Shown: piece after piece, positions 1,657-64,000 of the stretch | Numbering within the stretch: the first letter of the stretch is position 1 | Layout of the letters: each line of letters begins with the position of its first letter | Translations under genes and position numbers: made by a program | Notes under the pieces: model-generated | What the model was told of the DNA's origin: nothing | The model's database searches: none | Seen by the model: only the letters and a program-made list of their open reading frames with translations | Assembly: GCA_041661795.1 (NCBI GenBank) | Contig: JBAZTS010000004.1 | Span: 6,136-70,135, forward strand | Reading direction: 5' to 3' | Origin: Minisyncoccota bacterium | GTDB taxonomy: Bacteria > Patescibacteriota > Minisyncoccia > UBA6257 > JAGOQP01 | DNA length: 64,000 bases

Positions 1657-1684
1657 CCGATTAAGAGCTGATTAGAAATTGTCC

Positions 1685-1722: not shown

Positions 1723-1809
1723 GAAATATTTAGATTATTTATAGAAAAGAAAGCGCCACGTTGGATGTCCGTGGCGGGAGGGTGCGGGGTGTAGGCGCGG
1801 CGAGGGACG

Positions 1810-2091: not shown

Positions 2092-2143
2092 TTTCTTCTC
2101 TTCTTTTCTCCCGCGATGAGCTCACGGGGGGCTTGTTTTACGT

Positions 2144-2338: not shown

Positions 2339-2403
2339 CTCTATCTCTTTCTCCCGCGATGAGCTCGCGAGTAGCTCTACGTACTGCGTTTATTTATATA
2401 GAA

Positions 2404-16084: not shown

Positions 16085-16215
16085 CTAATCTTGTCCGCCC
16101 GAAAGGAATCTCACATCGTCCGCTCAGGGCGGACTCTTTCAAAACCCTCGGTTTTGAATAATTTCCTACACAGAGGACTAAGCGTCCTCCGACCCACCTC
16201 TATTCGAATCCATTG
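16085..16215. repeat. Copy A of a roughly 130-nt conserved three-hairpin element located 3' of a tRNA (between tRNA-Lys and tRNA-Gly)
   Basis: About 90% identical to 46806-46935. Hairpins GTCCGC-TCAGG-GCGGAC, TTCAAAACC-CTC-GGTTTTGAA and GAGGAC-TAAGC-GTCCTC. The third hairpin shows compensatory substitutions between the two copies. It begins with TGTCCGCCC..GGAATC, mimicking the tRNA-Lys 3' end (TGTCCGCCC..GGATTC) about 170 nt away. Confidence 0.7.
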
Positions 16216-23654: not shown

Positions 23655-24576
23655 TGCTATCCCGGTTGACTTTTGTATGGTTCCGTAATAGTATAAAGAC
23701 AGCTCGTTTGAACTCAAAACGTGGAGTCCTGGGGGACACGCGACCGAAAACGGCTTGCGCTCCATCGGTGGCGCTATATAAAATAACCGATTCTGTGTCG
23801 TGTGGGCGAGGAAGTACACCTGCACACGACATGCCGCGGAGGTCGTAATCTCCGCTGGTCCGATTGACGGCACGTGTTGCCGTCGAAATAGTGGCTCTAT
23901 GCTACTGGAAGTTGTTACCACTCTTGTGGTAACGGAGGCGGTACCCACTCCGCTCTCCATTCCAAAAGGGGACGCCAAGCGCTCCCCGTAGGCATCGACG
24001 CCAGAAACAGATACATCGGATCGTGTAACACTTGATCAGTTCGCGTGCCCCCAGGCTCCCGTCAACACAGCACCACCCACCCCGCCCTCGAGGGTGGTTT
24101 CTTTTTATATAACTATATAACTTGACAAAATATTTAATGTATGATAACATGTGCACATGTGCAAACTGCAGATCCCGCACAACGACGGGATTGGTGCACG
24201 AGCACAGCATAGGGCGCAGGGATGAAGACCCTGTCTGCCTAAGCTAAGCTGTGCTCTTACCAAAGCAGGACCGCACGGGTCCAAAAAGAGCCCACCCAGA
24301 GTGGACTCAAGGGAACGAAGGCCTTGCCCGTTAGAGCCCAAATCAACTACAAGGGAACAACTCTGATTGACAATCGCTTTCCATCCCAAACCAAGAAGAG
24401 GATAGGCTTGAAGGTTTAATGTCATCTCAAACTCCTCACATTAGTGTTTACACTAATGTGACACAAAGTTTGACGAAGACAACCTCTCTCAAGCCACCTC
24501 AAAAATTTAAAGGTCGGCTACCTTTTCAAATAGCCACTGCACTCCTCGGTCTCTCTATGAGACCACTCGATCCTAA

Positions 24577-24606
24577 GGGACGCCCCGCGCGTCCCTTTCG
24601 CTTTTT
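24577..24606 (+). terminator. Rho-independent terminator (GGGACGC-CCCGC-GCGTCCC + TTTCGCTTTTT) closing the GC-rich non-coding island
   Basis: Perfect 7-bp GC stem followed by a U-run on the plus strand. Confidence 0.7.
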
Positions 24607-35581: not shown

Positions 35582-36055
35582 ATGACCAATTTTGAATTTT
35601 CACGAGAGTTGATAAAAGGGAAAATCGCTGAGGTTGTTTTTGAGCAGATGTTTAGAGAATCCGGGAAGTGGACAATTTTGCGTTCCGGTTATGAGTATAC
35701 ACTTCCAGAACTAGCCCAGTATCAACATTTAGCAGAGGTAAAAGCGGTTATGAAAAACATTCGCAATGCTCCGGATTTCATTTTAATATCACAAGACAAA
35801 AAGGAAGTTCATTTGGTGGAAGTTAAGTATCGTACCCATAAACAGTCAGGAGATTTAAAGAGAATATCTCAAGACGTTTTAGAATTTTGGAATCCGTGTT
35901 GGTTATTCATTGCTTCTCCAGACGGATTTTTCTTTGAGCCGTGCCACACTGTTGTTAATAATAGTGGGAAAATAAAAGCTCTCTATTCAACTTGGGTAAG
36001 TGATAATACTCAGAAAGAATATCTAAAACTCCTTAACGAATTTGAGAAAAAATAA
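35582..36055 (+). CDS. Hypothetical PD-(D/E)xK nuclease-fold protein
   Basis: 'APDFILIS...EVHLVEVKYR' fits a D...(D/E)xK restriction-endonuclease-like core. It sits immediately after hsdS. Confidence 0.4.
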   Translation: MTNFEFSRELIKGKIAEVVFEQMFRESGKWTILRSGYEYTLPELAQYQHLAEVKAVMKNIRNAPDFILISQDKKEVHLVEVKYRTHKQSGDLKRISQDVLEFWNPCWLFIASPDGFFFEPCHTVVNNSGKIKALYSTWVSDNTQKEYLKLLNEFEKK

Positions 36056-36137
36056 CCCCTATGTCAAAAAATTTGGATTGGCAAGATGGGAGTGTTTTTT
36101 GGTTGCATTTCTACAAAATACTTTGTAGTTTTGGTAT

Positions 36138-36863
36138 ATGGATAATCCGAAAATCTTAATTGGAACTCCTACTTATTCGGGAAAGTTTTATTGTCTCTCA
36201 GAATGGGTAGAAAATATAAAGAAGATTAACTATCCCAATTTTGACGTTCTTTTGGTTGATAACTCCAAAGATGATGAATATAAAAAGAGGATTGAATCTT
36301 TGGGAATAAATTGTGTTAAATCCCCGCATTATGAGGGAAATCCAGTAAAAAGTTTATGTGAAGCAAGAAAGGTGTTTTTTGATAAAGCTCTTGAGGGTGG
36401 GTACGATTATGCCTTTAGTATAGAACAGGATCTTTTCCCGCCAGCAGATATTATACAAAAACTTCTTAAGTCCGATAAAAAAATTATCGGAACTACCTAT
36501 CTAGTTGGTCAACTTATGGATGAAAAAATAAGGAGAAAAAAAGATTGGCTGACATCATTTGCCGATTTGGAGAAAGAAATAATATTACCTGATGGCAATA
36601 AGGCCATGTATTGGATGACTCTTTCGGAAATAAAAAATAGAGGAGTGTTTCGGGTCAAGAGTTGTGCTTTTGGATGCACGCTTATTGCTCGCGATGTATT
36701 AGAAAAAATAAAACCAAGAGTGATTGAAGGATTAAGAAGATTTGATGATTACTATTTTTTTGAAGATTGTTTTAAAGAGGGCATAGAGGTTTATGGAGAT
36801 TCAGATATTTTAGTAGACCATTATCCTAGTTTAGGCGGGGGAAGTGGCTGGATTACACTTTGA
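36138..36863 (+). CDS. Glycosyltransferase family 2-like protein
   Basis: 'LIGTPTY...DVLLVDNSKDD' Rossmann-like GT-A N-terminus. Confidence 0.5.
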   Translation: MDNPKILIGTPTYSGKFYCLSEWVENIKKINYPNFDVLLVDNSKDDEYKKRIESLGINCVKSPHYEGNPVKSLCEARKVFFDKALEGGYDYAFSIEQDLFPPADIIQKLLKSDKKIIGTTYLVGQLMDEKIRRKKDWLTSFADLEKEIILPDGNKAMYWMTLSEIKNRGVFRVKSCAFGCTLIARDVLEKIKPRVIEGLRRFDDYYFFEDCFKEGIEVYGDSDILVDHYPSLGGGSGWITL

Positions 36864-36881
36864 TTTCTTTCTATAAAATGA

Positions 36882-36917
36882 GCACGGCTCGGATGTTTCC
36901 ATCCGAGCCGGTAGTGC
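36882..36917. terminator. Hairpin GCACGGCTCGGA-TGTTTCCA-TCCGAGCCGGT, left boundary of the GC-rich/cassette island (a related copy at 42498..42527)
   Basis: Read directly; it follows the minus-strand GC-rich ORF 36944..37372. Confidence 0.6.
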
Positions 36918-36943
36918 TTTAGGCGTGTGCTTGTTGCGGGGAG

Positions 36944-37372
36944 CTAGAGTTCGTGAGCCCAGGGGGCCCAGATGATCATGGTGGCGTCGTCGATCGTCGG
37001 TTGCTCGTCTGGCGGTCTGGGGGGGATCGCGACGACGACGTTGCCCTCCCTGATGCCCAGTTCGGTAGCGGTTGAATCGAGTTCGGTTCTCAACGACGTC
37101 CAGAAAAAGTCGTTGAGAGTCCGAAACTGACGCCGGTTCCGCTGGATTTTGATGTATGACCGCCTGAAGAAGGAGGCACCACCAAGCGATGCGGTTTCCG
37201 CCGTCAAGCTTTCGATTTCGGCGACGATGAAGCTCATGACCCTCAGGATGGTGGCGAGGTAATCGGGGATTTTACCGATCACCTTCTCACCCTCCTTGAC
37301 GGGGGGAAGCCCGTCGCTCGCCGGGGTTTGTCCGGCCTTTTCCACTAACTCGTCTAACCATGGAATCTGCAT
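36944..37372 (-). CDS. Hypothetical GC-rich protein (142 aa)
   Basis: AAGGAG ribosome-binding site upstream of the ATG. Composition unlike the host backbone. Terminator hairpin downstream. Confidence 0.5.
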   Translation of the reverse strand: MQIPWLDELVEKAGQTPASDGLPPVKEGEKVIGKIPDYLATILRVMSFIVAEIESLTAETASLGGASFFRRSYIKIQRNRRQFRTLNDFFWTSLRTELDSTATELGIREGNVVVAIPPRPPDEQPTIDDATMIIWAPWAHEL

Positions 37373-37441
37373 CGTCCGCTCCTTTCAAAAGTATTTATGT
37401 ATTAACAGAAATTGAAGAAGTTGTCAATAAGATATAACCCA

Positions 37442-37472
37442 GTGTTTTTTGTTTTGGTGTAGGTGATATAAT
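37442..37472 (+). promoter_or_regulatory. Conserved promoter GTGTTTTTTGTTTTGGTGTAGGTGATATAAT (copy 1 of 3), extended -10 TGnTATAAT, ending 6 nt before the ATG
   Basis: Identical or near-identical copies at 39371..39401 and 40558..40588, each 6-8 nt upstream of a start codon (leaderless-type). Confidence 0.65.
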
Positions 37473-37478
37473 AAAAAC

Positions 37479-37712
37479 ATGAGAAAGGAGCCAAAAAAAC
37501 AAAACATTGTCATCTATCAAACTAAAACCGGAGCAATTGAGCTTCGCGGTGATTATTGCAAAAAAACTATTTGGGCAAATCGTATGCAGATGGCCAAGAT
37601 ATTTGGTGTAAATCCTCAAGCAATTTCTAAACATATTCAAAATATCTATCAAGAAAAAGAGTTACAAAGAAAACCAACTAGTTCCATTTTAGAACTAATT
37701 CAAAATGGATAA
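37479..37712 (+). CDS. RhuM/Fic-associated N-terminal DNA-binding-domain-like protein (77 aa, probably a fragment)
   Basis: 'IVIYQTKTGAIELRGDYCKKTIWANRMQMAKIFGVNPQAISKHIQNIY' resembles the N-terminus of RhuM-family proteins. Confidence 0.5.
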   Translation: MRKEPKKQNIVIYQTKTGAIELRGDYCKKTIWANRMQMAKIFGVNPQAISKHIQNIYQEKELQRKPTSSILELIQNG

Positions 37713-37913
37713 TAGTTAATGTAATTATAGATAATCGTTAAACTTTGCCTATCTTTATTTTATATTTACATACATAGATTTTAGATATATCTGAGGGAGT
37801 ATGTGCAAATTTTGCACACAGTATAATACTGTAACTAATTCTTATACCTATCCAACCCACCTACACCAAAAATATGCTTAAGGACCAAATGGCCGAAACG
37901 ATTATCACCAAAT

Positions 37914-37947
37914 AACATCCTTACAAACTCCAGTTTGTAAGGATGTT
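37914..37947. repeat. Perfect palindrome AACATCCTTACAAACTCCAGTTTGTAAGGATGTT (cassette-boundary hairpin)
   Basis: Read directly. It shares the CAAACTCCAGTTTG core with hairpins at 38961 and 39328. Confidence 0.75.
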
Positions 37948-38090
37948 ATTTTACGGCCCAACTTCCCAGTAGTAATCTTTGCTTTACCGCTTGGGAATTG
38001 GGACAGGTAGATTCTTATTATATTTTGACTTCTAAATTGACTAAGTGGTTAAATTGTGTTATCCAATAAGTAGAACTCAAGGAGGAAAGT

Positions 38091-38303
38091 ATGAAGATGG
38101 AGAAGATGACCGATCGGAAACTGGGGCGGAAGGCGATGAAAATTCGCCTGATCGCCGAGACCGAGGAGGAGATGTCACTCCTCACCGAGATCACCTCTCA
38201 GTTGTTAGGAAGGTGGCCGGTTCTAGGAGACAAACTGAAGGATGAGAAGGTTTTCCAGCTTGACGTCACTCTCCGCAAGATGTGGTCAGCTGTTCTCGGC
38301 TGA
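38091..38303 (+). CDS. Hypothetical small GC-rich protein (70 aa), first gene of a three-gene GC-rich module
   Basis: AGGAGGA ribosome-binding site. A TTGACTTCT -35-like element upstream, similar to the other GC-rich modules. Confidence 0.45.
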   Translation: MKMEKMTDRKLGRKAMKIRLIAETEEEMSLLTEITSQLLGRWPVLGDKLKDEKVFQLDVTLRKMWSAVLG

Positions 38304-38350
38304 CGCGAAGCGCTTGCTTAACTTGCTGTATGAACTGAAAGGAGACAGAG

Positions 38351-38617
38351 ATGTGCGGACCACAGTTGGGAATCCCGCTCAACGACCAGACCCTCGCTGA
38401 GATGTCCCAGGAGGAGAGGAACTTCTGGCTGGACTTCCTGGAAGAGGCCTCTGATGTCATCGAGAAAATGGCGGATGAAGAGGCCACTCAGCCATTCACT
38501 CCGCCGGCCTCGCTTCTGTCCAAGTACAACATGGCGGTGGCACGCTATGATGGGCGTGCTTACTGCCAGATCCTCCAACTGGAGGAGATCTTCAACTTCC
38601 ACCAGACCCAGACCTAA
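38351..38617 (+). CDS. Hypothetical small acidic GC-rich protein (88 aa)
   Basis: AAGGAG ribosome-binding site 7 nt upstream. Confidence 0.45.
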   Translation: MCGPQLGIPLNDQTLAEMSQEERNFWLDFLEEASDVIEKMADEEATQPFTPPASLLSKYNMAVARYDGRAYCQILQLEEIFNFHQTQT

Positions 38618-38628
38618 CAAGGAAGGAG

Positions 38629-38826
38629 ATGCCGATGTTTTCAAACAAGAAGTGTCCGAAGTGCGAGAAGTCGTACACGATCCTAGCGACCACGATCTAC
38701 AACGTCCAGTGGTGCTTCTCCCACGGAGAAGCACCCGTCTTCCTGGACAGGACGCTCTGTTGTGGAGCACCTGTCGGGAACTTTCGGGGAGGAGACCCCT
38801 CTTCGACGCTGGTGACCAGCACCTGA
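38629..38826 (+). CDS. Small Cys-rich protein (CPKC...YNVQW...RTLCCGAP), paralog of 42236..42424
   Basis: Clear amino-acid similarity to ORF 42236 (KKCPKCEKSYTILATTIYNVQWCFSHGEAPVFLDRTLCCGAPV vs KEKCPKCGQTCGMAITVYNIQWVRENGERPVYLSRTLCCGSPM). Ribosome-binding site present. Confidence 0.6.
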   Translation: MPMFSNKKCPKCEKSYTILATTIYNVQWCFSHGEAPVFLDRTLCCGAPVGNFRGGDPSSTLVTST

Positions 38827-38960
38827 TCAACTCTCCAACTACTTAAGTACAACCAGGGCAGTTTCACTGCCTCGACCGCCGCGGCCAACCCCCGCGGCGG
38901 ATCTTTTTTATAAAGAAATATAATTTTGATTTTCATCGCTAATCTTGGCCTATCTTTTCC

Positions 38961-39000
38961 ACATAACATATCAACAAACTGGAGTTTGTTGATATGTTAT
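38961..39000. repeat. Perfect palindrome CATAACATATCAACAAACTGGAGTTTGTTGATATGTTATG (cassette-boundary hairpin)
   Basis: Read directly. Same stem as 39328..39365, with the loop inverted. Confidence 0.75.
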
Positions 39001-39026
39001 GTGTGGGGATGTATAATATACAGAAT

Positions 39027-39311
39027 ATGGAAAAGCTAAAAACCGCCGAACAAATGGAGAGGCATCTTAAAGGAATGGCCAATCATTACCGGATTGAAAT
39101 TTTACTTCTTTTAGATTCCAGCGACGGCATAACTCTTGACGCTATTATAAAAGCAATGGATGCTGACCCAAGAACAATAGGGGAACACGCTAGACGTCTC
39201 TACAATGCCGGCTTGGTTGATAAAAAATATAGGGGCAGATTTATGGAGTATAAACTCTCTCCCTATGGGAAAAAATTTGTTTCTTTTTTAAAATCTTTTC
39301 AGCGTGTCTAA
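39027..39311 (+). CDS. ArsR/SmtB-family winged-helix transcriptional regulator
   Basis: 'MANHYRIEILLLLDSSDGITLDAIIKAM' HTH_20 pattern. Start chosen at the internal Met after the hairpin. Confidence 0.6.
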   Translation: MEKLKTAEQMERHLKGMANHYRIEILLLLDSSDGITLDAIIKAMDADPRTIGEHARRLYNAGLVDKKYRGRFMEYKLSPYGKKFVSFLKSFQRV

Positions 39312-39327
39312 TTTAAATTCTTTAATT

Positions 39328-39365
39328 ACAACATATCAACAAACTCCAGTTTGTTGATATGTTGT
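39328..39365. repeat. Perfect palindrome ACAACATATCAACAAACTCCAGTTTGTTGATATGTTGT
   Basis: Read directly. Confidence 0.75.
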
Positions 39366-39370
39366 TTTGG

Positions 39371-39401
39371 GTGTTTTTTGTTTTGGTGTAAGTGATATAA
39401 T
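39371..39401 (+). promoter_or_regulatory. Conserved promoter GTGTTTTTTGTTTTGGTGTAAGTGATATAAT (copy 2)
   Basis: One-nt variant of the 37442 and 40558 copies; it ends 8 nt before the GNAT ATG. Confidence 0.65.
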
Positions 39402-39409
39402 TAGTTTAA

Positions 39410-39871
39410 ATGAAAATAAAAATTAGGAAAGCAAAATTAGAGGAGCTAAAAAAGATTGTTAATGTAACCAGTAAAGCATTTGACGATCCGTTTGATCCTA
39501 AGGGCTACATAAGGAAAGACAAAGAGTATTATAAAGATTTAGTAGCGCCGTTTAAAGATAAAAAATTTGGTATTTTTGTTGCGGTCTATAACGATAAAAT
39601 AATAGGAGTTCAGCGATTTGAATTTATAAAAAACAATATAAATCTATTTCGGCTTGGTGTGTTAAAGTCATTTAGAAACAAAGGCGTGGCTCCGGCTTTG
39701 ATAAAAAGAACCGAATCCGAAGGTAAAAAGAAAAACTGCAAGAAGATAACTCTGATGTGTATTGAAGAAAAGGGATTGACTCCTTACTATAAAAAAATTG
39801 GTTTTAGGGTGGATAAGATAAAGAAGCATCGAGATCATCACGATGTTTTTATGTCTAAGTCCATAAACTAA
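39410..39871 (+). CDS. GNAT-family N-acetyltransferase
   Basis: 'IGVQRFEF...FRLGVLKSFRNKGVAPALIKR' acetyl-CoA-binding motif A (R/Q-x-x-G-x-G/A). Confidence 0.7.
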   Translation: MKIKIRKAKLEELKKIVNVTSKAFDDPFDPKGYIRKDKEYYKDLVAPFKDKKFGIFVAVYNDKIIGVQRFEFIKNNINLFRLGVLKSFRNKGVAPALIKRTESEGKKKNCKKITLMCIEEKGLTPYYKKIGFRVDKIKKHRDHHDVFMSKSIN

Positions 39872-39895
39872 TCTGCCTTCTCCTAAAAAGTTTTT

Positions 39896-40038
39896 GAGTG
39901 TTTTTTGGTTTAAGTTGACTTCTGTGATTTATGTGATATAACTATGGCAGAATTGTAGTCAATCGAAGTTTTGCACCAAACTGTCTGTGAACAGAAGGGG
40001 CGGTGTAAAACACTGCTCTTTCACAAGAAAAGGAGAAA
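39896..40038 (+). promoter_or_regulatory. Promoter (TTGACT ... TGTGATATAAC) plus conserved roughly 100-nt 5' leader of GC-rich module 1; homologous to 41903..42033
   Basis: About 75-80% identity to the leader at 41903-42033, including 'AATCGAAGTT(T/C)TGCAC' and 'CTGCTCTTTCACAAGAAAAGG(A/G)GA'. Alternative pairings GTGAACAG/CTGCTCTTTCAC and GAAAGAGC/GCTCTTTC preserve a hairpin. Confidence 0.55.
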
Positions 40039-40411
40039 TATGTCTCAGGCAAAGTGTAGTTCTTGCCAACGCGTTTTCGAACCGTCTGTCTCGTTCGACT
40101 TCTACCCGAAGCCGACTCCGAAGGATCCAGACGCCGGTTTGTGCGAGAGCTGTCTCATGAGAGGGATCTTCCAGGAGACGGCGCGCGACCCGGTCCCGGT
40201 TCCCAACGGACACGAGACGAGCGTCTGCAAGAAGGGACAGGGAGAACTGACCTGTAGCTTTTTGGGTCTCTCTTCCAGGGACGGGCACCTCGTCTACGAG
40301 TGCCTGAAGGGAAGCTCCTTGGAATCGGCCATCAGAGGGCGGCTTCGGGAGGGCTCCATGAAGTCCAAGGGGGACAACTGCTCCGGACCCCCCGACTTCC
40401 GGGCCAACTGA
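40039..40411 (+). CDS. Cys-rich protein (124 aa), apparently a fusion of domains homologous to ORFs 42034 and 42236
   Basis: The N-terminus 'CSSCQRV..YP..P.DPDAGLCESC' resembles 42034 'CDVCCYRR..YPVDP...C'. The C-terminus 'CKKGQGELTCSF..' resembles 42236 'CPKCGQTCGM'. Ribosome-binding site AAGGAG. Confidence 0.5.
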
Positions 40412-40557
40412 CCATCTCTCTCACAAAGCACAACCAGGCAGAACAAAACTGCCACTTGACCGCCACGGCTCACCCCGTGGCGTTCTGCTTTTGTAAAAAT
40501 ATTTTTTGGTTTCTCTTATTTTCTAATTCGTACGAATAGGTAAATAGAAAAATTGGG

Positions 40558-40588
40558 GTGTTTTTTGTTTTGGTGTAGGTGATATAAT
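40558..40588 (+). promoter_or_regulatory. Conserved promoter GTGTTTTTTGTTTTGGTGTAGGTGATATAAT (copy 3)
   Basis: Identical to 37442..37472; it ends 6 nt before the NYN-gene ATG. Confidence 0.65.
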
Positions 40589-40594
40589 ATAAAT

Positions 40595-41095
40595 ATGAGA
40601 ATAGAAGGAAATAATTGTGCCTATATTGATGGAGCTAACTTGCACAATGGTGTTGCCAGCTTAGGTTGGAATCTTGATTATAAAAAATTTAGAGTATGGT
40701 TATCGGAAAAATATTCAATAAAAAACGCCTATATTTTTATAGGACTCATTTCTAAGTACAAAGAACTTTATAAATATTTACAGGAGTGCGGATTTACTCT
40801 TATTTTTAAAGAGGTGATTTATGATGGAAACGGTAAGCCAAAAGGAAATTGTGACGCTGATTTAGTTTTACAATCTACTCGCGATGCTTATGAAAACAAA
40901 TTTGATAGATCAATTATTGTTACAAGCGATGGAGATTACGCTGGATTAGTAAAATTTCTTCAAGAAAAACAAAAGTTATTAGTCATTCTATCTCCCAACA
41001 ATCAGGAAAGGTGCTCGATTCTTCTTAAAAGAACTGGCGTCAAAATAGCTTACATAAATGACCAGCGTTCTATATTGGGGACTTCTGTAAAATAA
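40595..41095 (+). CDS. NYN-domain (LabA-like) putative ribonuclease
   Basis: 'AYIDGANL...D.ADL.L..........SDGDYAGLVKFL' NYN/DUF88 pattern. Confidence 0.65.
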   Translation: MRIEGNNCAYIDGANLHNGVASLGWNLDYKKFRVWLSEKYSIKNAYIFIGLISKYKELYKYLQECGFTLIFKEVIYDGNGKPKGNCDADLVLQSTRDAYENKFDRSIIVTSDGDYAGLVKFLQEKQKLLVILSPNNQERCSILLKRTGVKIAYINDQRSILGTSVK

Positions 41096-41292
41096 AAAAG
41101 CCCCCAACGAAGACAGAACTTCGCAAGGGTCTTTTTCGTAGTGATGTTATATATATATCACACTTGTACAATAAAATCAATCTTCTGTGGATAACTTAAA
41201 AACCAACCTTATTCTTTAAAAAACGCTGTTATATCTTTGACGATATCTTTGGTTGATTATATAATGAACGTAATACTATTAAATAAAATAAA

Positions 41293-41841
41293 ATGGATCC
41301 AGAAAATAATGTAGAAAATATTGTTTCGTCGGTTGGCGGTAAGAAAAAATTAATAATTATTGGAGTTATTGTTCTGGCGGTTATTGTTGTTGGGTATTTG
41401 ATTAATGGTTTTGTCGGCAGAACTGCGGGAGATAAATTGGCCGAAAACATTCTTGAAAATCAACTTGGAGGAAATGTGGATATAGATTCAAGTGACGGTT
41501 CCGTTTCTATAGTAACAGACCAGGGAACTTTTACTTCCGGAGATTCAGCCAAGTGGCCATCGGATATGCCAAGCGATGTTCCAAAATTTACCAAAGGCAA
41601 AATAACGGTAGCCGGGTCTTCTCTGACGGGAGGCACTGGCTGGCAAGTGATGTATGAAGGCGTTAATAAGGGAGATTTTGACGCTTATCACAACACTCTT
41701 AAATCCGCGGGATGGACTGACATCGGAACATTTAGCGCTGATATAAATATTATTCAGATGAGTAAGGGTGAAAATAGTTTGATGATGGCTATTGACGCTC
41801 AAAGCAAAGCATTCACTCTGACGGTTTATACTGGAGAATAA
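41293..41841 (+). CDS. Hypothetical membrane-anchored protein
   Basis: N-terminal TM helix. A strong terminator follows (41851-41882 AAAACAGGGCTCTTGGAGCCCTGTTTTTTTT). Confidence 0.45.
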   Translation: MDPENNVENIVSSVGGKKKLIIIGVIVLAVIVVGYLINGFVGRTAGDKLAENILENQLGGNVDIDSSDGSVSIVTDQGTFTSGDSAKWPSDMPSDVPKFTKGKITVAGSSLTGGTGWQVMYEGVNKGDFDAYHNTLKSAGWTDIGTFSADINIIQMSKGENSLMMAIDAQSKAFTLTVYTGE

Positions 41842-41902
41842 TTTATTGTCTCAAAACAGGGCTCTTGGAGCCCTGTTTTTTTTACATAAAAATGTTTGTT
41901 GT

Positions 41903-42033
41903 TATTTTGACATCTGTGACTTATGTGGTACAACTTGAGCAAGATTGTAATCAATCGAAGTTCTGCACTAAACGCTGTTTATCGAAAGAGCGGTGCGGGA
42001 CTTGCTCTTTCACAAGAAAAGGGAGGAAAGAAA
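41903..42033 (+). promoter_or_regulatory. Promoter (TTGACA ... TGGTACAAC) plus conserved 5' leader of GC-rich module 2
   Basis: Homologous to 39896..40038. Confidence 0.55.
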
Positions 42034-42219
42034 ATGCTTCCAGCATGTGACGTGTGTTGTTACCGAAGAGATATCTGGCGTATTTACCCCGTTGATCCTC
42101 GGAAACAAAAGTTGTCTCACAATCGCTATGCCTGCGATCTTCACAAGAGCGAAGTGATCTCGCGGGTGAAGTCCAGTACTGCGTGGCCCAACTTCGAGGT
42201 GATCGTCGAGAAGATCTGA
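42034..42219 (+). CDS. Small Cys-rich zinc-ribbon-like protein (61 aa)
   Basis: GGGAGG ribosome-binding site; 'CDVCC...C..H' pattern. Homologous to the N-terminal half of 40039..40411. Confidence 0.5.
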   Translation: MLPACDVCCYRRDIWRIYPVDPRKQKLSHNRYACDLHKSEVISRVKSSTAWPNFEVIVEKI

Positions 42220-42235
42220 AGGAAAGGAGAAACAA

Positions 42236-42424
42236 ATGCCGAAGAAGGAGAAGTGTCCCAAGTGCGGGCAAACGTGTGGGATGGCCATCACGGTCTATAA
42301 CATCCAATGGGTGCGTGAGAACGGGGAGCGTCCGGTGTATCTTTCCCGGACGCTCTGCTGCGGCTCACCGATGAGGGGATTCTGGGGAGAGAATTTCCCC
42401 CTGGTGCCGGGATCCAGCCCCTAG
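42236..42424 (+). CDS. Small Cys-rich protein (CPKC...YNIQW...RTLCCGSP), paralog of 38629..38826
   Basis: AAGGAG ribosome-binding site; paralogy as above. Confidence 0.6.
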   Translation: MPKKEKCPKCGQTCGMAITVYNIQWVRENGERPVYLSRTLCCGSPMRGFWGENFPLVPGSSP

Positions 42425-42497
42425 TTCTTTCGCTGTCGTACATTACCGGTCAGGCATCTCGCCTGACCGGTTTCGCTTCAAAAACTCACCCAAAATA

Positions 42498-42527
42498 AAG
42501 CACGGCTCGGAAAATCCGAGCCGGTGA
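42498..42527. terminator. Hairpin GCACGGCTCGGA-AAA-TCCGAGCCGGTG, right boundary of the GC-rich modules (a related copy at 36882..36917)
   Basis: Read directly. Confidence 0.6.
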
Positions 42528-42626
42528 TATTGTTGATGTGTTAATGTGGTTTGTGAGTTGTGCTTTCTATGTTACAATCAATGTCCCGGTCGAGTGATTA
42601 TTTCTAATTTTGTTTAAAAATATTTT

Positions 42627-42821
42627 ATGAAAACAATTTCATGTAAAGATATGGGAGTAGAGTGTGATTTTTCCGCTCAGGCCGAAACAGCCGAAGAAGC
42701 AGTAAAGTCCTTAAAAGAACATGCTGCTCAAGTTCACGCCGATAAGGTTGCCGAAATGTCGGCCACTATGTCAGACGAACAAATGACAAGCGAGATGATG
42801 TCCAAAGTTAAGGATATGTAA
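42627..42821 (+). CDS. DUF1059-family small protein
   Basis: 'MKTISCKDMGVECDF' matches the DUF1059 N-terminal signature. A terminator follows at 42828-42865. Confidence 0.6.
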   Translation: MKTISCKDMGVECDFSAQAETAEEAVKSLKEHAAQVHADKVAEMSATMSDEQMTSEMMSKVKDM

Positions 42822-42888
42822 TTTCAAAAACCGTCCCGATTTGTCGGGGCGGTTTTTTGTTTGGATTGGAATATTGTAAGATGTATCT

Positions 42889-43221
42889 ATGAATAACAAT
42901 CTTACTCAAAAAAAGTGTCTGCCTTGCGAGGGAGGAGTCCCTCCTCTGGATAAAACCCAAATGGAAGAGCTTATTAAAGAAACCCCCGGCTGGGAGATCA
43001 CAGAAGAAGGGAAAAAAATAAAGAGAGAGTTTAAATTCAAGGATTTTAAAGAAACGATAGTATTTGTAAACAAAGTGGCAGAGTTGGCAGAAAGTGAAGG
43101 GCATCATCCTGATATCCATATTTTTTACAGCCGTTTGGAACTGGAATTATGGACGCATATGATTGGAGGACTCTCGGAAAACGATTTTATTTTGGCAGCC
43201 AAGATTAACGCTTTGCTATAA
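42889..43221 (+). CDS. phhB: Pterin-4a-carbinolamine dehydratase (PCD/DCoH)
   Basis: 'E.GHHPD' active-site motif and overall PCD pattern (WEI.EEG..I.REFKFKDF). Confidence 0.8.
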   Translation: MNNNLTQKKCLPCEGGVPPLDKTQMEELIKETPGWEITEEGKKIKREFKFKDFKETIVFVNKVAELAESEGHHPDIHIFYSRLELELWTHMIGGLSENDFILAAKINALL

Positions 43222-43282
43222 ATTATTTTTTGATATAATTAAATCAGTTCGCTAAATCTTCTGCGAACCAAAAGGAGGCAGT

Positions 43283-43426
43283 ATGCCAGTTTGGTGTAAT
43301 AAGCACAACAAGGAGGTGAAGAAGAAGGACAGGGCGCGATGCTACAGGTTGGGGTGCTCGTGGCTGTCGTTCATCTTGCGACGAAAGAGCAGGAGAATCA
43401 GTCGGAGTAGCAGAAGGTAAGCACAT
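43283..43426 (+). CDS. Small Arg/Lys-rich GC-rich ORF (47 aa), tentative
   Basis: AAGGAGG ribosome-binding site 6 nt upstream; GC-rich. A hairpin terminator (AGGCCTGCGT-TTGGGG-ACGCAGGCCT) follows at about 43460-43490. Confidence 0.3.
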
Positions 43427-43549
43427 CTCGTCTCGCGGGTAACACCGTCGGGACGTCAGTAAGGCCTGCGTTTGGGGACGCAGGCCTTGTAAAATATACA
43501 CTTGCGTGAGCGAGTGATTTTTGTTATAATATAAATAAGGAGGTGTGAG

Positions 43550-43756
43550 ATGGATCAGGTGCTGGTTTCTTTATTGGCCGTAACGGTCATCGGTCTTCTT
43601 GCGGCTATCTGTTACGTCGTCTCTCTATTTATTAAGGGGAGATCAGACAAGAACAAAAAAATCAACAAAGAAATTACTGACTCCCTCTGCAAGTGGTCCC
43701 ACCAGGATATCGGAAAGCCGCCCGATGATCTCTGGAGTAAGCCGCCGGGAAAATGA
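43550..43756 (+). CDS. Small membrane protein (68 aa)
   Basis: GGAGG ribosome-binding site; one TM helix. A terminator follows at 43790-43832 (CGTCCGCGGGA...TCCCGCGGACG TTTTCGTTT). Confidence 0.45.
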   Translation: MDQVLVSLLAVTVIGLLAAICYVVSLFIKGRSDKNKKINKEITDSLCKWSHQDIGKPPDDLWSKPPGK

Positions 43757-46816: not shown

Positions 46817-46935
46817 TGTGAGCGGGTAAGGGGAATCTCACGTCGTCCGCTCAAGGCGGACTCTTTCAAAACCCTCGGTTTTGAATAATTTCCTACACGG
46901 AAGATTAAGCATCTCCCGACCCCTCTCTATTCGAT
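46806..46935. repeat. Copy B of the roughly 130-nt tRNA-associated three-hairpin element (3' of tRNA-Trp)
   Basis: About 90% identical to 16085-16215. It begins with TGAGCGGGTAAGGGGAATC, an exact 19-nt duplicate of the tRNA-Trp 3' end located 180 nt away. A bidirectional hairpin plus T-run (46940-46980) separates it from tRNA-Trp. Confidence 0.7.
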
Positions 46936-46985
46936 TCCATTCCACTCATAAAAAATATCCCGGCGATGCGGAATATTTTTTTATG

Positions 46986-58038: not shown

Positions 58039-61000
58039 ATGCTTAGAAATTTAAAATCTTTTAACCCTTCGGAAATAGAAGAGAAGATACTCCAATTTTG
58101 GAAGGAAAAGAATATATTTGAAAAAACTTTAATTCCTAAAAAAGGAAAGAAGAAAAAACTTTTCAATTTTTGGGAAGGTCCGCCCACAGCCAATGGCAGG
58201 CCGGGCATTCACCATGTTATCGCAAGGTCCTTTAAGGATGTTGTTTTGAGATACAAAACAATGGCGGGTTTTACCGTTCCAAGACGTGGTGGATGGGATA
58301 CTCACGGGCTTCCGGTTGAACTTCAAACAGAAAAGCAACTTGGGCTTGCCTCTAAAAAAGATATAGAAAAATATGGGGTAGCCCAGTTTAACCAAAAATG
58401 TAAAGAATCGGTCTGGATATACAAAAGTGAATGGGAAAAATTCACTGAGCGCATAGCTTATTGGCTTGATTTGAAAAACGCTTATGTAACATACAAGAAT
58501 AGATACATAGAAACACTCTGGTGGATAATTTCGCAGTTTTGGAAAAAGGGTTTGATGTATCAGGGATACAAAATTGTTAACTGGTGTACCAGATGCGGGA
58601 CATCTCTTTCTTCCCATGAAGTTGCTCAGGGGTATAAAGAAGTTACTGAAAATTCGGTTTATATAAAATTTAAACTAAATAAAGGACAGAAAATTAAAAA
58701 TATCGCGACCGATGATAAAACATTTGTTCTTTCTTGGACGACTACACCATGGACTTTACCGGGCAATGTAGCTTTGGCTGTTGGGGAAAAGATAAATTAT
58801 TCTCTTGTGGAAGATTCTCAAACAAAGGAAAAATATATAATCGCTTCTGAACTTAAAAATTCTGTTTTGAAAGGAGAAAATTTAAAAGATTTGGTAAATT
58901 TTACCGGAAAAGATTTAATGGGACTTTCTTATAAACCTCTTTTTGACATTGCTACTTTAAAATCCAATACTTCCTATAAAATTTATCCTGCTGATTTTGT
59001 AACGACCACCGACGGAACTGGAGTGGTTCATACCGCCGTGGTTTACGGAGAAGACGATTATAATTTAGGTAAAAAAATAGGTCTTCCAGAAGTTCATACG
59101 GTTGATGAAAACGGAAAATTTGTTTCTCAGGTAAAAGATCTTTCTGGGCTCTACGTTAAATCAAAAGAAGCGGAAGAGAAAATATTTGAACATCTAAAAA
59201 ACAATGGAAATTTTGTTTCCATTCTTCCGTATACTCATGAGTACCCCTTCTGTTGGAGGTGCGATTCACCTCTGCTTTACTATGCCAGAAGCGCCTGGTT
59301 TGTGGCGGTTAATAAAGTCAAAAAACAACTTATTGAAAACAATCAGAAAATAAATTGGGTGCCTTCCCATATCAAAGATGGCCGTTTTGGGGAGTGGCTC
59401 AAAGAAGTCAAAGATTGGAATTTTTCCCGAGAAAGATATTGGGGAACTCCTCTTCCTATATGGAAATGCGACAAGTGCGATAACCACAGAATAATTGAGA
59501 ATTTTAACCAACTCACGGAACTTCTGCCAAAAAGCTCCAATAGCTATATATTAATGAGGCATGGACAGTCCCAGGGCAATGTAAAAGGAATTTCCAACGG
59601 TAATCCAAAGGATAGAAATAAATTTAGTTTGACTCTTAAGGGCAACGTTGAAGCTCAAAAAAGCGCTCAAGCCATAAAAAAGAATGGCGGAGTGGATATA
59701 ATTATTTCTTCTGATTTTCAGAGAACGGCTCAAACAGCCAAAGTTGTTGCTGAAGTTTTGGGAGTAAAAAAAGTTATCTTTGATAAGCGCTTGAGAGAAA
59801 TAAATGTAGGCGTTTTTGATAATTCTCCTATAAATAATTATCACCTTTTCTTTTCTTCTTACGAAGAAAAATTTTTGAAAAATCCGCCCAAAGGGGAAAG
59901 TTTAAGAGATGTAGCCGCAAGAGTGTATTCTCTGATAAAAGAAATTGAAAAAAAATATAAAAATAAAAAGATTTTAATTGTCAGTCATGAATATACATTA
60001 TGGATGGCTTCGGGAGTTATCAATGGTTATGATCAGGACGAAATGATAAGAGAAAAAGAAAAAAGAGGAGATGACTATTTAGGAACGGCTCAATGGGAAA
60101 AAATTAATTTCAAAAATGTTCCAAGAGACAAGGAAGGTTTTTGTGATTATCACAAGCCACACATAGACGCGGTTTCTTTTCCTTGCGATAAATGCAAAGG
60201 GAAAATGACAAGAGTTAAAGAAGTAGCCGATGTTTGGTTTGATGCCGGGTCAATGCCGTTTGCTCAAGACCATTTTCCGTTTAACAAAAACATTACTTTT
60301 CCGGCTGACTATATTTCCGAAGCCGTAGATCAGACCAGGGGGTGGTTTTATACTCTTTTGGCTGTATCAACTTTATTAGGGTTAAAGGGTTGTTATAAAA
60401 ATGTTATTTGCTTGGGACACATTAGGGATAAAAACGGTCAGAAAATGTCTAAGTCGCGAGGTAATGTTATTGACCCTTGGTTGATGATAAACAAATACGG
60501 AGCCGATGCATTGAGGTGGTATCTTTTTAACGTTAATGCTCCCGGAGAACCAAAAAACTTTGACGAGGAAGAATTGGCCAAAACTTTAAGAAAAACAATT
60601 TTAGTTATATATAACTCTTTTGTATTTTTAGAAACTTACGGAAAAAAAGGAGTGGATATCGGTCTCGCTTTAAAGTCCCCAAATGTCTTGGATAAATGGA
60701 TAGTAGAAAGAGTTTTTCAACTTTCCGATTCTGTAAGAAAGAATATGGATGCTTACGACATTATTAAATCTGGACAAAACATAGAACAGTTTATAGATGA
60801 TCTTTCCCGCTGGTATATAAGGAGGTCCAGAAGACGACTTCAGAAGCCAGAAGAAAAGTTATCAAATAAAAATAATGATTATCAAAATGCTTCAGCTACT
60901 CTGGCCTACGCTCTTTTATCTCTTTCCAAAATCATGGCTCCCTTTGTTCCGTTCTTTTCCGAAGCACTTTATCAATCGTTAAAGAAAGAGACCAAGTTTG

Positions 61001-61581
61001 ATTCAAAAGAATCAGTTCATCTGGAAGAATGGCCTAATTTAGGGGAAAGAGGAAAGGGGAAAGGGGAAAGCAAAAATCTGACTGAAGAGATGGAAGAGAT
61101 AAGAAAAATAGCATCACTGGTTTTGGCAAAAAGGTCAGAGCTGGGAATAAAAGTAAGACAGCCACTAGCTTTGCTTAGGGTAAAGGGTGCATGGTTTAGG
61201 GGTAAGGGAGATGAGGGGTTGTTGGAGATACTTAAAGATGAGGTGAATGTAAAAGAGGTTATTGTTGATAAAAAGTTAAAGAATGAATTTGAATTGGATA
61301 CAAATATTACTTCGGAACTTAAAAACGAAGGTATGATAAGAGAACTCACAAGAATAATCCAGGACTTAAGACAAAAATCTGGTTGTGTCCCTAAAAATAA
61401 GATATTTATTTGGATAGAAAGCGTGCCCGAGATAGAAAACTTTGTGAAAATTAATACAAAAGTCATCTCTCTGGAAGTTGGGGCTAAAAAAATTGAATTT
61501 GGCAAAAAAGACAAATTTGACGCCGAGGAGGAAACTAAAATTGACGGCCAAAAGATTTGGGTAGGAATTAAAAAAGCTTAG
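58039..61581 (+). CDS. ileS: Isoleucyl-tRNA synthetase with an inserted histidine-phosphatase (PGAM-like) domain
   Basis: HIGH 'PGIHHV' and 'KMSKS' motifs, the IleRS-type N-terminus (PPTANG...GWDTHGLPVE) and a Zn-binding C..C pair. About 230 aa between 'WKCDKCDNHR' and 'DYHKPHID' carry 'LMRHGQSQGN' (RHG motif) and 'LIVSHEYTL' of the histidine-phosphatase superfamily. Confidence 0.8.
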   Translation: MLRNLKSFNPSEIEEKILQFWKEKNIFEKTLIPKKGKKKKLFNFWEGPPTANGRPGIHHVIARSFKDVVLRYKTMAGFTVPRRGGWDTHGLPVELQTEKQLGLASKKDIEKYGVAQFNQKCKESVWIYKSEWEKFTERIAYWLDLKNAYVTYKNRYIETLWWIISQFWKKGLMYQGYKIVNWCTRCGTSLSSHEVAQGYKEVTENSVYIKFKLNKGQKIKNIATDDKTFVLSWTTTPWTLPGNVALAVGEKINYSLVEDSQTKEKYIIASELKNSVLKGENLKDLVNFTGKDLMGLSYKPLFDIATLKSNTSYKIYPADFVTTTDGTGVVHTAVVYGEDDYNLGKKIGLPEVHTVDENGKFVSQVKDLSGLYVKSKEAEEKIFEHLKNNGNFVSILPYTHEYPFCWRCDSPLLYYARSAWFVAVNKVKKQLIENNQKINWVPSHIKDGRFGEWLKEVKDWNFSRERYWGTPLPIWKCDKCDNHRIIENFNQLTELLPKSSNSYILMRHGQSQGNVKGISNGNPKDRNKFSLTLKGNVEAQKSAQAIKKNGGVDIIISSDFQRTAQTAKVVAEVLGVKKVIFDKRLREINVGVFDNSPINNYHLFFSSYEEKFLKNPPKGESLRDVAARVYSLIKEIEKKYKNKKILIVSHEYTLWMASGVINGYDQDEMIREKEKRGDDYLGTAQWEKINFKNVPRDKEGFCDYHKPHIDAVSFPCDKCKGKMTRVKEVADVWFDAGSMPFAQDHFPFNKNITFPADYISEAVDQTRGWFYTLLAVSTLLGLKGCYKNVICLGHIRDKNGQKMSKSRGNVIDPWLMINKYGADALRWYLFNVNAPGEPKNFDEEELAKTLRKTILVIYNSFVFLETYGKKGVDIGLALKSPNVLDKWIVERVFQLSDSVRKNMDAYDIIKSGQNIEQFIDDLSRWYIRRSRRRLQKPEEKLSNKNNDYQNASATLAYALLSLSKIMAPFVPFFSEALYQSLKKETKFDSKESVHLEEWPNLGERGKGKGESKNLTEEMEEIRKIASLVLAKRSELGIKVRQPLALLRVKGAWFRGKGDEGLLEILKDEVNVKEVIVDKKLKNEFELDTNITSELKNEGMIRELTRIIQDLRQKSGCVPKNKIFIWIESVPEIENFVKINTKVISLEVGAKKIEFGKKDKFDAEEETKIDGQKIWVGIKKA

Positions 61582-63650: not shown

Positions 63651-63806
63651 AAAACCCATACTTGACTTTTGTCTTAATATTTGCTATAATCCAAGGACAA
63701 ACTGGAATAAGGTGACATTGGGTCATCTTGTCCAGACGCACATTAACAAGAAGTGAACATGTTGTGGAAGGTTTAGGAACCTTACCGCAACAGAAAGGGA
63801 AAGCTC

Positions 63807-64000
63807 ATGTCCAATCGTGAGACGGCCCAAGCGACACTGGGACAGGTGTGGGAACTGCTGGGGGATATTTTCAAGATCCTCGGCAAAAAGTTCTCAGGCC
63901 TCTCCCTCTCACAGGTCCAGCGGTTGATCAGCAACAAGAAGCAGCTGATCGACAGCTACTGGAAGGTGGCTCTCGATATTCTCGGTGAGGTCGAGGATGT
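63807..64000 (+). CDS. GC-rich hypothetical ORF, 5' part only (runs off the window)
   Basis: ATG 63807 with an AAAGGGAAAG ribosome-binding site. Composition like the other GC-rich modules. Not in the ORF track because it has no stop within the window. Confidence 0.35.
   Translation, partial: MSNRETAQATLGQVWELLGDIFKILGKKFSGLSLSQVQRLISNKKQLIDSYWKVALDILGEVED

Follow-up and report, generated by a model that had tools for sequence, protein, structure and literature searches.

Repeated joints and GC-rich modules in a probable strain-variable island next to a type I restriction-modification locus of a Candidatus Paceibacterota genome

The 64-kb stretch of contig JBAZTS010000004.1 studied here (hereafter, the window) belongs to a Candidatus Paceibacterota metagenome-assembled genome and contains, downstream of a type I restriction-modification (R-M) locus, a region in which AT-rich single-gene units are interleaved with GC-rich modules. 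We favour, with moderate confidence, the view that this region is a strain-variable accessory or defence island, made of cassettes recombined at repeated joints and of GC-rich modules. The two classes of genes differ sharply in base composition and expression signals, repeated elements are found at the joints, and gene content is not that of the one diverged relative recovered (L007, to which L008, obtained in a second sample, is identical), the breakpoints coinciding with the joints. What we infer from such observations is how the units recombine, that the GC-rich modules are of foreign origin, and that the island may have a role in defence.

Two classes of expression units

The mean GC content of the window is 37.6%. 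Between 36.8 and 43.5 kb, five segments (36811-37426, 38055-38942, 39985-40531, 42036-42558 and 43241-43532) reach 50-55% GC, with 200-nt peaks of 0.55-0.62, and the stretches between them have 25-40% GC. The nine open reading frames (ORFs) of the modules (A, B1-B3, C, D1-D2, E and an ORF of 68 aa) have a GC content at third codon positions (GC3) of 0.57-0.76, eight of them falling within 0.60-0.76; the interleaved and flanking host-like genes have a GC3 of 0.24-0.40. Windowed GC content and GC3 thus confirm the compositional mosaic of GC-rich modules and AT-rich units described in the initial annotation. The module ORFs fit coding sequence in the proposed frames because GC3 exceeds the GC content at both first and second codon positions. 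The components of the modules are listed below; SD stands for Shine-Dalgarno sequence.

36944-37372, minus strand: module A ORF, 142 aa, an ORFan; GC3 0.74; SD AGGAG 6 nt upstream
37399-37427, minus strand: promoter-like site of module A, TTGACA, 17 nt, TAATAC; kept in L007
38025-38905, plus strand: module B, with a promoter-like TTGACT, SD-led ORFs at 38091-38303, 38351-38617 and 38635-38826, and a GC-rich terminator at 38876-38900; GC3 0.72-0.76; absent from L007
39915-40492, plus strand: module C, with promoter TTGACT-16-TATAAC at 39915-39942 and a leader of about 90 nt at 39950-40039
40040-40411, plus strand: module C ORF, 123 aa, Cys-rich, GC3 0.76; terminator at 40461-40482
41907-42472, plus strand: module D, with promoter TTGACA-16-TACAAC, ORFs at 42034-42219 (D1) and 42236-42424 (D2), and a terminator at 42446-42472
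43283-43489, plus strand: module E, with an Arg/Lys/Cys-rich ORF of 45 aa at 43283-43420 (SD GGAGG, GC3 0.74) and a hairpin at 43462-43489
43550-43756, plus strand: membrane peptide of 68 aa, SD GGAGG, GC3 0.57; possibly a sixth module

Strong, normally spaced SD sites (GGAG or GAGG) precede nine of nine module ORFs versus two of the 48 other ORFs of the window (Fisher p = 6e-9). A scan for AGGAG or GGAGG ahead of a start codon, with a minimum ORF length of 40 aa, gave outside the modules only positions inside longer ORFs. Canonical -35/-10 promoters, 5' untranslated regions (UTRs) and GC-rich intrinsic terminators are also predicted from the sequence of the modules.

The AT-rich units present a different picture. 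Their genes, among them the one preceding module A, are the following:

36138-36863, plus strand: glycosyltransferase-2-like gene; Pfam Glycos_transf_2 at 16.6 bits, below cut-off; no L007 counterpart by BLASTN
37479-37712, plus strand: RhuM-N / PDC-S05-like gene, 77 aa; PADLOC PDC-S05, E = 3.9e-23; absent from L007
38989-39017, plus strand: promoter of the regulator, TTGATA-17-TATAAT
39027-39311, plus strand: winged-helix (ArsR/MarR-like) regulator, its start most likely at 39027; Pfam MarR, HTH_20 and HTH_5 all below cut-off; not in the visible part of L007
39410-39871, plus strand: GNAT acetyltransferase; Pfam Acetyltransf_10, E = 1.3e-12; 93.8% nucleotide identity to L007
40595-41095, plus strand: NYN-domain nuclease; Pfam NYN, E = 2.6e-13; PADLOC NYN match
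41293-41841, plus strand: 182-aa protein with an N-terminal hydrophobic segment; no family match in Pfam, PADLOC or PHROG

In the RhuM-N/PDC-S05-like, winged-helix, GNAT and NYN units the -10 box ends 6-9 nt before the ATG, and no SD is present. Because the -10 box is so near the ATG and an SD is lacking, the mRNAs of these units are probably leaderless. On account of the contrasts in SD, promoter and GC3, the two classes of units differ in composition, in promoter type and in the mode of translation initiation.

According to the reading that we favour, the island would be built of self-contained, monocistronic or short expression units of two kinds. Units of the first kind would be genes of host composition, transcribed from a near-identical extended -10 promoter into leaderless mRNAs and insulated by long, perfect palindromic terminators. 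Those of the second kind would be GC-rich, moron-like modules with a -35/-10 promoter, a 5' UTR, a strong SD, one to three small ORFs and a GC-rich terminator.

Some of the first functional labels must be tempered. The ArsR label is weak, with Pfam matches that fall below cut-off and a Csa3-like winged-helix-turn-helix (wHTH) match in PADLOC. The glycosyltransferase label is likewise weak, given the sub-threshold Pfam score listed above, and the PD-(D/E)xK label given to 35582-36055 could not be confirmed, as neither Pfam nor PADLOC yields a match. The suggestion of a defence-related island survives in part: the region adjoins a type I R-M system, ParE/Phd and RadC are encoded upstream, and defence-flavoured genes are found in the window (PDC-S05/RhuM-N-like and NYN) and in L007 (NERD and DUF4268). 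On the negative side, the GC-rich ORFs have no match in Pfam, PHROGs or PADLOC, and most island proteins, including all the GC-rich ones, are without a PADLOC match.

Relationships between modules were detected at two levels. B3 and D2 are paralogous (50% identity over 52 aa, E = 1e-18), which bears out the earlier mention of paralogous small proteins, and the promoter and leader of module C are related to those of module D (76-81% identity over 72-135 nt), also as previously noted. D1 was considered as a paralogue of the module C protein and rejected (hhalign probability 0.1%). Compensatory changes, one double and several single, preserve a 10-bp stem of the C/D leader, and one hairpin involves the SD. 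The leader recurs 5' of the Wolfebacteria homologue of module C (locus L012), so that three distinct sequences are available, too few for a structural claim. Searches with the leader gave no Rfam match; a viral scan with a 20-mer gave one chance match, inside an AT-rich phage gene.

Module A is a protein-coding gene under purifying selection and was present before the two strains split. Its sole relative is the L007 protein P0005 (86% identity), and the comparison with L007 gives a synonymous divergence (dS) of 0.31 and a ratio of non-synonymous to synonymous divergence (dN/dS) of 0.25; it is this ratio that identifies a real gene under purifying selection. In the GNAT gene, dN/dS is 0.16 and dS is 0.25. 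The structure model of the module A protein is poor, with a pLDDT (the per-residue model confidence) of 56.5. Homologues of A, B2 and B3/D2 were not found outside this species: the search with B2 returned only itself, and the B3/D2 profile, run against 1.84 billion representatives, retrieved itself plus two junk repeat proteins.

Repeated joints and differences in gene content between strains

Four types of repeated elements were found around the units: a 31-nt promoter, a palindrome with a common core, a hairpin and a T-rich motif. Their positions are as follows:

36034-36104, plus strand: conserved junction, composed of the last 6 codons of a gene (NEFEKK) and stop, about 45 nt, and the T-rich motif GAGTGTTTTTTGGTT
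36882-36912, minus strand: GCACGGCTCGGA hairpin, copy 1, with a T-run; terminator of module A; -25.2 kcal/mol, z = -6.4; kept in L007
37442-37472, 39371-39401 and 40558-40588, plus strand: three copies of the 31-nt promoter GTGTTTTTTGTTTTGGTGTAGGTGATATAAT, with 0-1 mismatch
37910-37951, plus strand: palindrome copy 1, at the end of a repeat of about 100 nt (37851-37951); z = -8.4; A- and T-tracts
37924 (plus), 38975 (minus) and 39340 (plus): the CAAACTCCAGTTTG core of the palindromes; 0.06 copies expected, no others in the window
38960-39003, minus strand: palindrome copy 2, flipped, overlapping the -35 box of the regulator promoter
39328-39401, plus strand: composite joint, formed by palindrome copy 3 (39328-39365) and 31-nt promoter copy 2 (39371-39401)
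39896-39910, plus strand: T-rich junction motif, directly 5' of the module C promoter; identical in L007
42500-42526, minus strand: GCACGGCTCGGA hairpin, copy 2, terminator-like, without a gene to terminate

The 31-nt promoter contains an extended -10 box (TGaTATAAT), and copies 1, 2 and 3 stop 6, 8 and 6 nt 5' of the ATG of the RhuM-N-like, GNAT and NYN genes, respectively. Three near-identical promoters placed 6-8 nt from these start codons had been pointed out before, and the observation stands: no copy is expected by chance (100 shuffles), and the rest of the window is devoid of copies. The 5' part of this promoter is the T-rich motif GAGTGTTTTTTGGTT, which also stands alone at 36090 and 39896. 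Five of the six matches to the motif in the window lie in the island, where 0.46 would be expected. All copies of the 31-nt promoter and of the CAAACTCCAGTTTG core, together with the island copies of the T-rich motif, are located between 36.0 and 40.6 kb.

The CAAACTCCAGTTTG cores lie in palindromes with arms of 18-21 nt that are 100% complementary. These are the longest perfect hairpins in the window, with RNA folding z scores from -6.0 to -8.4, and copy 1, flanked by A- and T-tracts, may be read as a bidirectional terminator. Two more copies of the ~100-nt repeat that contains it are found in L007, and changes in the stem are compensated. In contrast with the initial view of palindromes as general separators of units, the perfect palindromes are real and mark only three of about ten boundaries. 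We also considered that the palindromes could be operators of the ArsR-like regulator; this was judged less likely, as L007 has palindromes and no such gene in view. For the copy that overlaps the -35 box of the regulator, a dual role as terminator and operator may be contemplated. A mini-ORF or 3' gene remnant, M(A/S)ETI(I/V)(T/V)K-stop, is found just 5' of three palindrome copies (37888-37915 in the window; approximately 3490-3467 and 1745-1719 on the minus strand of L007), and the copies differ in part by synonymous changes, of which there are several. Like the NEFEKK junction, it may be what is left of the 3' end of a gene that was replaced.

Both copies of the GCACGGCTCGGA hairpin lie within the island, and none is found elsewhere in the window. 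They had been described as a bracket around the GC-rich part, an idea that does not hold: both score as minus-strand intrinsic terminators, and module E lies beyond the pair. The second copy may be a relic, since there is no gene for it to terminate. In the neighbouring segment 42524-42650, we noticed that this orphan minus-strand terminator (42503-42523) is accompanied by a weak minus-strand promoter-like site (42647-42619). One may speculate that these signals, as read from the DNA, would produce an antisense RNA of about 100 nt opposite the promoter and 5' end of the DUF1059 gene.

Comparison with L007 revealed a succession of shared blocks with the following nucleotide identities:

hsdM: 91%
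hsdS: 83%
67-nt junction at 36034-36100 (2611-2677 in L007): 95.5%
module A and the 31-nt promoter: 88%
GNAT gene and the start of the module C promoter: 94%

The genes that lie between the blocks are not the same. L007 carries DUF4268, DUF4349, NERD, a 260-aa PD40-like gene and a 158-aa, weakly GNAT-like gene; the window carries a 157-aa gene, the glycosyltransferase-like gene, RhuM-N, module B and the regulator. The same genes in the same order, an outcome that would have spoken against an island of variable content, are therefore not what this relative presents. The limits of homology fall at 36100, just past the T-rich motif; at 37475, the start codon that follows copy 1 of the 31-nt promoter; and at 39408, the start codon of GNAT. 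Another block of homology begins at 36869, 13 nt before the terminator hairpin of module A. The genes on either side of the 36034-36100 junction differ between the strains, and the proteins encoded upstream share only NEFEKK; a third gene, in L007, has a similar NEFEKK-type end with 3 mismatches.

Joints of the same types are found in L007. NERD lies behind a palindrome and the 31-nt promoter, the 158-aa gene behind the 31-nt promoter, and the 260-aa gene behind a shortened version of this promoter. The composite of palindrome and 31-nt promoter occurs twice in L007 and once in the window. In L007 a palindrome with a truncated promoter also abuts the module A terminator with no gene behind it, and looks like an emptied slot.

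A second type of evidence comes from the assembly graph. In the k=141 ENA assembly, module C forms its own 824-nt unitig (39818-40641), with an exact 141-nt overlap with both flanking contigs. Because the unitigs were left unmerged with such overlaps, graph branches at 39958/39959 and 40500/40501 are implied. The left branch lies 13-16 nt past the -10 box of module C and the right one at the TTTTTTGGTTT motif, so it is precisely the transcribed portion of module C that seems to vary among near-identical strains in the sample. We considered a deletion of this module between 11-nt TTTTTTGGTTT repeats and discarded it, as it does not fit the left branch at 39958. The L007 contig stops within the module C promoter, and a scan of genome contigs with the flanking 386-aa protein found no relatives.

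Taken together, these patterns are compatible with a scenario in which genes would be exchanged by recombination at the repeated joints (T-rich motif, 31-nt promoter and palindrome). The route would presumably be homologous or homology-facilitated recombination with DNA taken up from relatives, a modular shuffling similar to that of the promoter-early stem-loop (PeSL) elements discussed below and without a dedicated site-specific recombinase. The GC-rich modules, in turn, would probably have been gained horizontally from a GC-richer, SD-using pool among bacteria of the candidate phyla radiation (CPR) or their mobile elements. Of the mobile cassette array proposed at the outset, the strain-variable single-gene units behind shared promoter and hairpin joints are retained; no recombinase or attC-like site was found. 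Nor was the integrase sought elsewhere on the contig detected: the precomputed Pfam annotation of 26.9-39.9 and 40.5-53.2 kb contains no Phage_integrase, rve or recombinase, and an integrase was not seen among about 40 further ORFs scanned, which represent part of those in the window.

The module C family and the origin of the GC-rich modules

The module C protein represents an unnamed, conserved family restricted to the CPR. The family comprises about 50 proteins with 44-61% identity, seen only in Patescibacteria (Wolfebacteria, Colwellbacteria, Yanofskybacteria, Minisyncoccia, Saccharibacteria and Paceibacterota). Its N-terminal domain has a zinc-ribbon-like CxxC...CxxC pattern, and the C-terminal domain, which is all that the short forms contain, has invariant Cys residues and an invariant GDNCSGPPDF motif. 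An AlphaFold model of the module C protein is confident (pLDDT 81.5) and has no neighbour in the PDB; matches in Pfam, PHROG and PADLOC are likewise lacking.

The family is not island-specific, because other CPR genomes have homologues at unrelated places in the chromosome: in L016 between pth and lepB, in L031 by an IS481 transposase and ComEC, and in L012 near AbiEii. Wherever the upstream region was inspected in detail, the homologue has its own promoter, SD and terminator. The gene is GC-richer than its host locus in about half of the loci examined; it stands 8-22 GC points above the locus, with GC3 of 0.59-0.78, in L012, L020, L027, L030, L031 and the window. The GC3 of about 0.75 that recurs from module to module, in hosts of differing GC, is suggestive of a common GC-rich pool and of later amelioration in some lineages.

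GC-rich units that extend from promoter to terminator are also found in other parts of the window (1678-2392, 23659-24606 and from 63660 onwards), contrary to the idea that GC-rich modules are peculiar to the island. Their features can be summarized as follows:

(i). At 1678-2392, on the minus strand, a GC-rich module contains two small hydrophobic ORFs (approximately 2144-2338 and 1803-2090), each preceded by TCTCCCGCGATGAGCTC (2107-2129 and 2350-2369 in plus-strand coordinates). It adjoins a gene for a Cas2/PaaX-like domain protein (1054-1656).

(ii). At 23659-24606, on the plus strand, two adjacent units of about 410 and 450 nt have folding z scores of -6.8 and -8.7. The scan detected no SD-led, GC3-rich ORF in them, and relaxing Rfam to E <= 1 gave no match either; the two units may be novel structured non-coding RNAs.

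(iii). At 63660-64000, on the plus strand, a GC-rich module has promoter TTGACT-17-TATAAT, a leader of about 115 nt and an ORF that starts at 63807 (GC3 0.75) and runs past the end of the window. Two Logan contigs, from two samples, stop at about 63604, some 55 nt before this module.

Such units among housekeeping genes, near 1.7, 23.7 and 63.7 kb, lend weight to a competing explanation, unlikely in our opinion, in which the modules are native, specially regulated genes or non-coding RNAs whose composition and SD are kept by selection, and the repeats are the standard signals of the lineage. One possibility under this explanation is translation only by a subpopulation of ribosomes with an exposed anti-SD, as in the bS21-lacking ribosomes of Flavobacteria. 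It agrees with the strong folding of the two units that lack an SD-led, GC3-rich ORF, with the maintenance of module A in place under purifying selection, and with the SD found before module C homologues in most CPR loci examined. In locus L016, moreover, rpsU, which encodes bS21 (9340-9603), has a strong SD and most of its neighbours have none, a match to the pattern described in Bacteroidia (PMC9976891, PMC7797042). Against this explanation stands the difference in gene content between strains, whose breakpoints coincide with the joints. The patchy and non-syntenic distribution of the module C family, with host-like GC in several genomes, is also at odds with it, and the lack of homologues of modules A, B and D beyond the species would be unusual for a conserved regulon.

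Several observations weigh against the recombining island that we favour. The breakpoint statistics rest on a handful of junctions and one divergent relative, and the 31-nt promoter and the T-rich motif, counted over 64 kb, could be common elsewhere in the genome. A metagenome scan with the module C/D promoter yielded the same strain only, in a contig identical to the window, and no second allele was retrieved at the module C bubble. With a dS of 0.31 versus 0.25 for GNAT, module A dates back to the separation of the two strains and is no very recent arrival. Homologues of module C with host-like GC occur in L016, L025 and L028; like the GC-rich units that look non-coding, they would be compatible with selection in place of transfer. 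Lastly, no donor of the GC-rich genes was identified: modules A, B and D are ORFans, and viral, phage and plasmid collections gave no match, whether modules A and C were used as proteins in the viral scan or the module C protein was compared by tblastn with phage and plasmid collections.

The viral scan was also run with the joints. The palindrome had no match, and the promoter core hit a single phage promoter in two contigs, a result judged uninformative. That phage promoter, TTGACAcaTTTTGGTGTAGGTGATATAAT (IMG/VR; L032 14257-14277 and L033 2209-2229), contains a 21-nt core of the island promoter; the likeness could be due to chance or to a distant link with a phage of related hosts.

A further alternative is that the region is the degraded remnant of one GC-rich integrated element, with the GCACGGCTCGGA copies as attL/attR-like ends, later broken up by host-like genes. 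Four of the five GC-rich modules do lie between the two direct repeats (36882 and 42500), and the modules share a GC3 of about 0.75, SD use and paralogous parts. We nevertheless find this improbable. Both hairpins are ordinary minus-strand intrinsic terminators, the pair encloses neither module E nor the 68-aa ORF, and similar modules exist far from the island; integrase, replication and structural genes are missing, as are PHROG matches. Furthermore, the interleaved units have repeated joints of their own, which points to turnover unit by unit.

Still less credit can be given to an integron-like, site-specific system in which the palindromes would be attC-like sites for a recombinase encoded elsewhere. 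Palindromes do lie at unit boundaries, their perfect pairing is kept through compensated changes, and one of them is flipped. They occur, however, at three of about ten boundaries only, their arms pair perfectly where those of attC do not, and their A- and T-tracts fit bidirectional terminators. Besides, the cassettes carry their own promoters, and no integrase was found within 10 kb on either side or among the window ORFs scanned.

An assembly chimera, with reads of a GC-rich organism incorporated into an AT-rich genome, is highly improbable: contigs of several assemblies stop at or near module boundaries, but module A and its flanks are kept in the diverged strain, module edges coincide with promoters and terminators, and the GC mosaic is not an assembly artefact, because independent contigs from ENA (MEGAHIT), Logan and JGI agree with the window at 100% identity over all overlaps and jointly cross the AT/GC module junctions that were checked.

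The window has a chromosomal setting, with genes for RuvB, RNase Y, isoleucyl-tRNA synthetase (IleRS), tRNAs and transfer-messenger RNA (tmRNA). At gathering thresholds, Rfam recognized tRNAs and tmRNA only in the whole window, and an E-value scan of 36.8-43.9 kb gave nothing other than spurious hairpin matches. Two features far from the island deserve a brief mention. The 1180-aa isoleucyl/class-I tRNA synthetase (58039-61581, plus strand) has the halves of its catalytic domain split by a His_Phos_1 (histidine-phosphatase) domain. Near tRNA genes, a 110-nt direct repeat with 90% identity is found at 16105-16214 and 46832-46941, and Logan contigs stop there.

A bolder interpretation, to which we assign a low probability, is that the GC-rich units are a distinct class of mobile, self-contained CPR expression modules, with a composition and a translation 'dialect' of their own in hosts whose genes are SD-less or leaderless, that move between T-rich slots without a dedicated recombinase. 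Such a module would comprise a promoter, in some cases a structured leader, a strong SD, small ORFs for Cys-rich or membrane proteins, and a terminator. Their dependence on SD could tie them to a special state of the ribosome (with the anti-SD exposed) and make them a conditionally translated pool of accessory or defence genes.

CPR bacteria (Patescibacteria) have tiny genomes with few recognizable mobile elements, and gene gain and loss in them are poorly understood. If true, a chromosomal analogue of PeSL shuffling would be a simple, recombinase-free means of cassette turnover beside defence loci. Two gene classes within a few kb also offer a testable handle on SD-independent and SD-dependent translation in the CPR, and the module C protein with its conserved leader is a defined experimental target.

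Comparison with known systems

The closest analogue that we find is the PeSL, a composite of stem-loop and sigma-70 promoter that is repeated in the genomes of T4-like phages (Arbiol et al. 2010, PMC2839356; Comeau et al. 2014, PMC4122927). PeSLs gather in hyperplastic regions 5' of ORFans, and their recombination gives rise to indels, replacements and mini-circles (PMC2839356, PMC4122927). The analogy is one of mechanism, not of family membership. In both cases, repeated joints combine a stable stem-loop terminator with a strong sigma-70-type promoter, as judged for the island from sequence alone; the joints are concentrated in a variable region, directly 5' of single small or ORFan genes; and where close relatives differ by an insertion, a deletion or a replacement, the breakpoints are located at the joints (here, in one relative). 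Differences are also evident. The island is located in a CPR chromosome beside an R-M locus instead of a T4-like phage, and it lacks PHROG structural matches. Its promoter is of the extended -10 type, with predicted leaderless mRNAs; its stems are long, AT-rich perfect palindromes whereas those of PeSLs are polyG/polyC; and an extra T-rich motif marks the island junctions.

Phage morons are autonomous units of promoter, gene and terminator, with deviant base composition, lodged between two prophage genes. The GC-rich modules resemble them in having their own promoter, small ORF(s) and terminator, and a composition sharply unlike that of their neighbours. Unlike morons, the modules are not in a recognizable prophage, and no phage genes flank them. 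In addition, several are paralogous and share a structured leader, and they use SD while host genes are SD-less or leaderless.

Integron cassettes are promoterless and are expressed from a common Pc promoter, next to IntI and attI; attC sites are imperfect palindromes with extrahelical bases. The island is reminiscent of such arrays in its mostly single-gene units, the hairpin-forming repeats between them and the strain-variable content. It differs in the absence of IntI, attI and imperfect attC sites, in the promoters carried by the units, and in the opposite orientation of module A. The island is not an integron, given that no integrase was found among the ORFs scanned, that the hairpins are perfect and present at three boundaries only, and that each unit has its own promoter-like site.

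Ribosomes of Bacteroidia ignore SD unless bS21 is missing, and rpsU is an SD-led exception (PMC7797042, PMC9976891). The window shows a comparable situation, with almost all of its own genes SD-less and a small set with strong SD; the phylum is a different one, however, and the genes led by an SD are here those of GC-rich ORFan modules.

Genomic islands with type I R-M and frequent horizontal transfer have been documented in Patescibacteria/Paceibacteria (PMC12455944). The island described here resembles them as a variable region by hsdRMS and a toxin-antitoxin pair, with nuclease-type and candidate defence genes. The repeated promoter/terminator joints and the interleaved, GC-rich, SD-led modules set it apart; to our knowledge, fine structure of this kind has not been described for defence islands.

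To call the array one of an undescribed kind, as initially proposed, is too strong in view of two precedents: PeSL joints (PMC2839356, PMC4122927) and type I R-M islands of Paceibacteria (PMC12455944). By analogy, it is better regarded as a new form, in a chromosome, of phenomena already known, namely PeSL-like joints, morons and defence islands. What is genuinely uncommon here is the sharp dichotomy in translation signals between gene classes, together with a new conserved CPR protein family that has a conserved leader.

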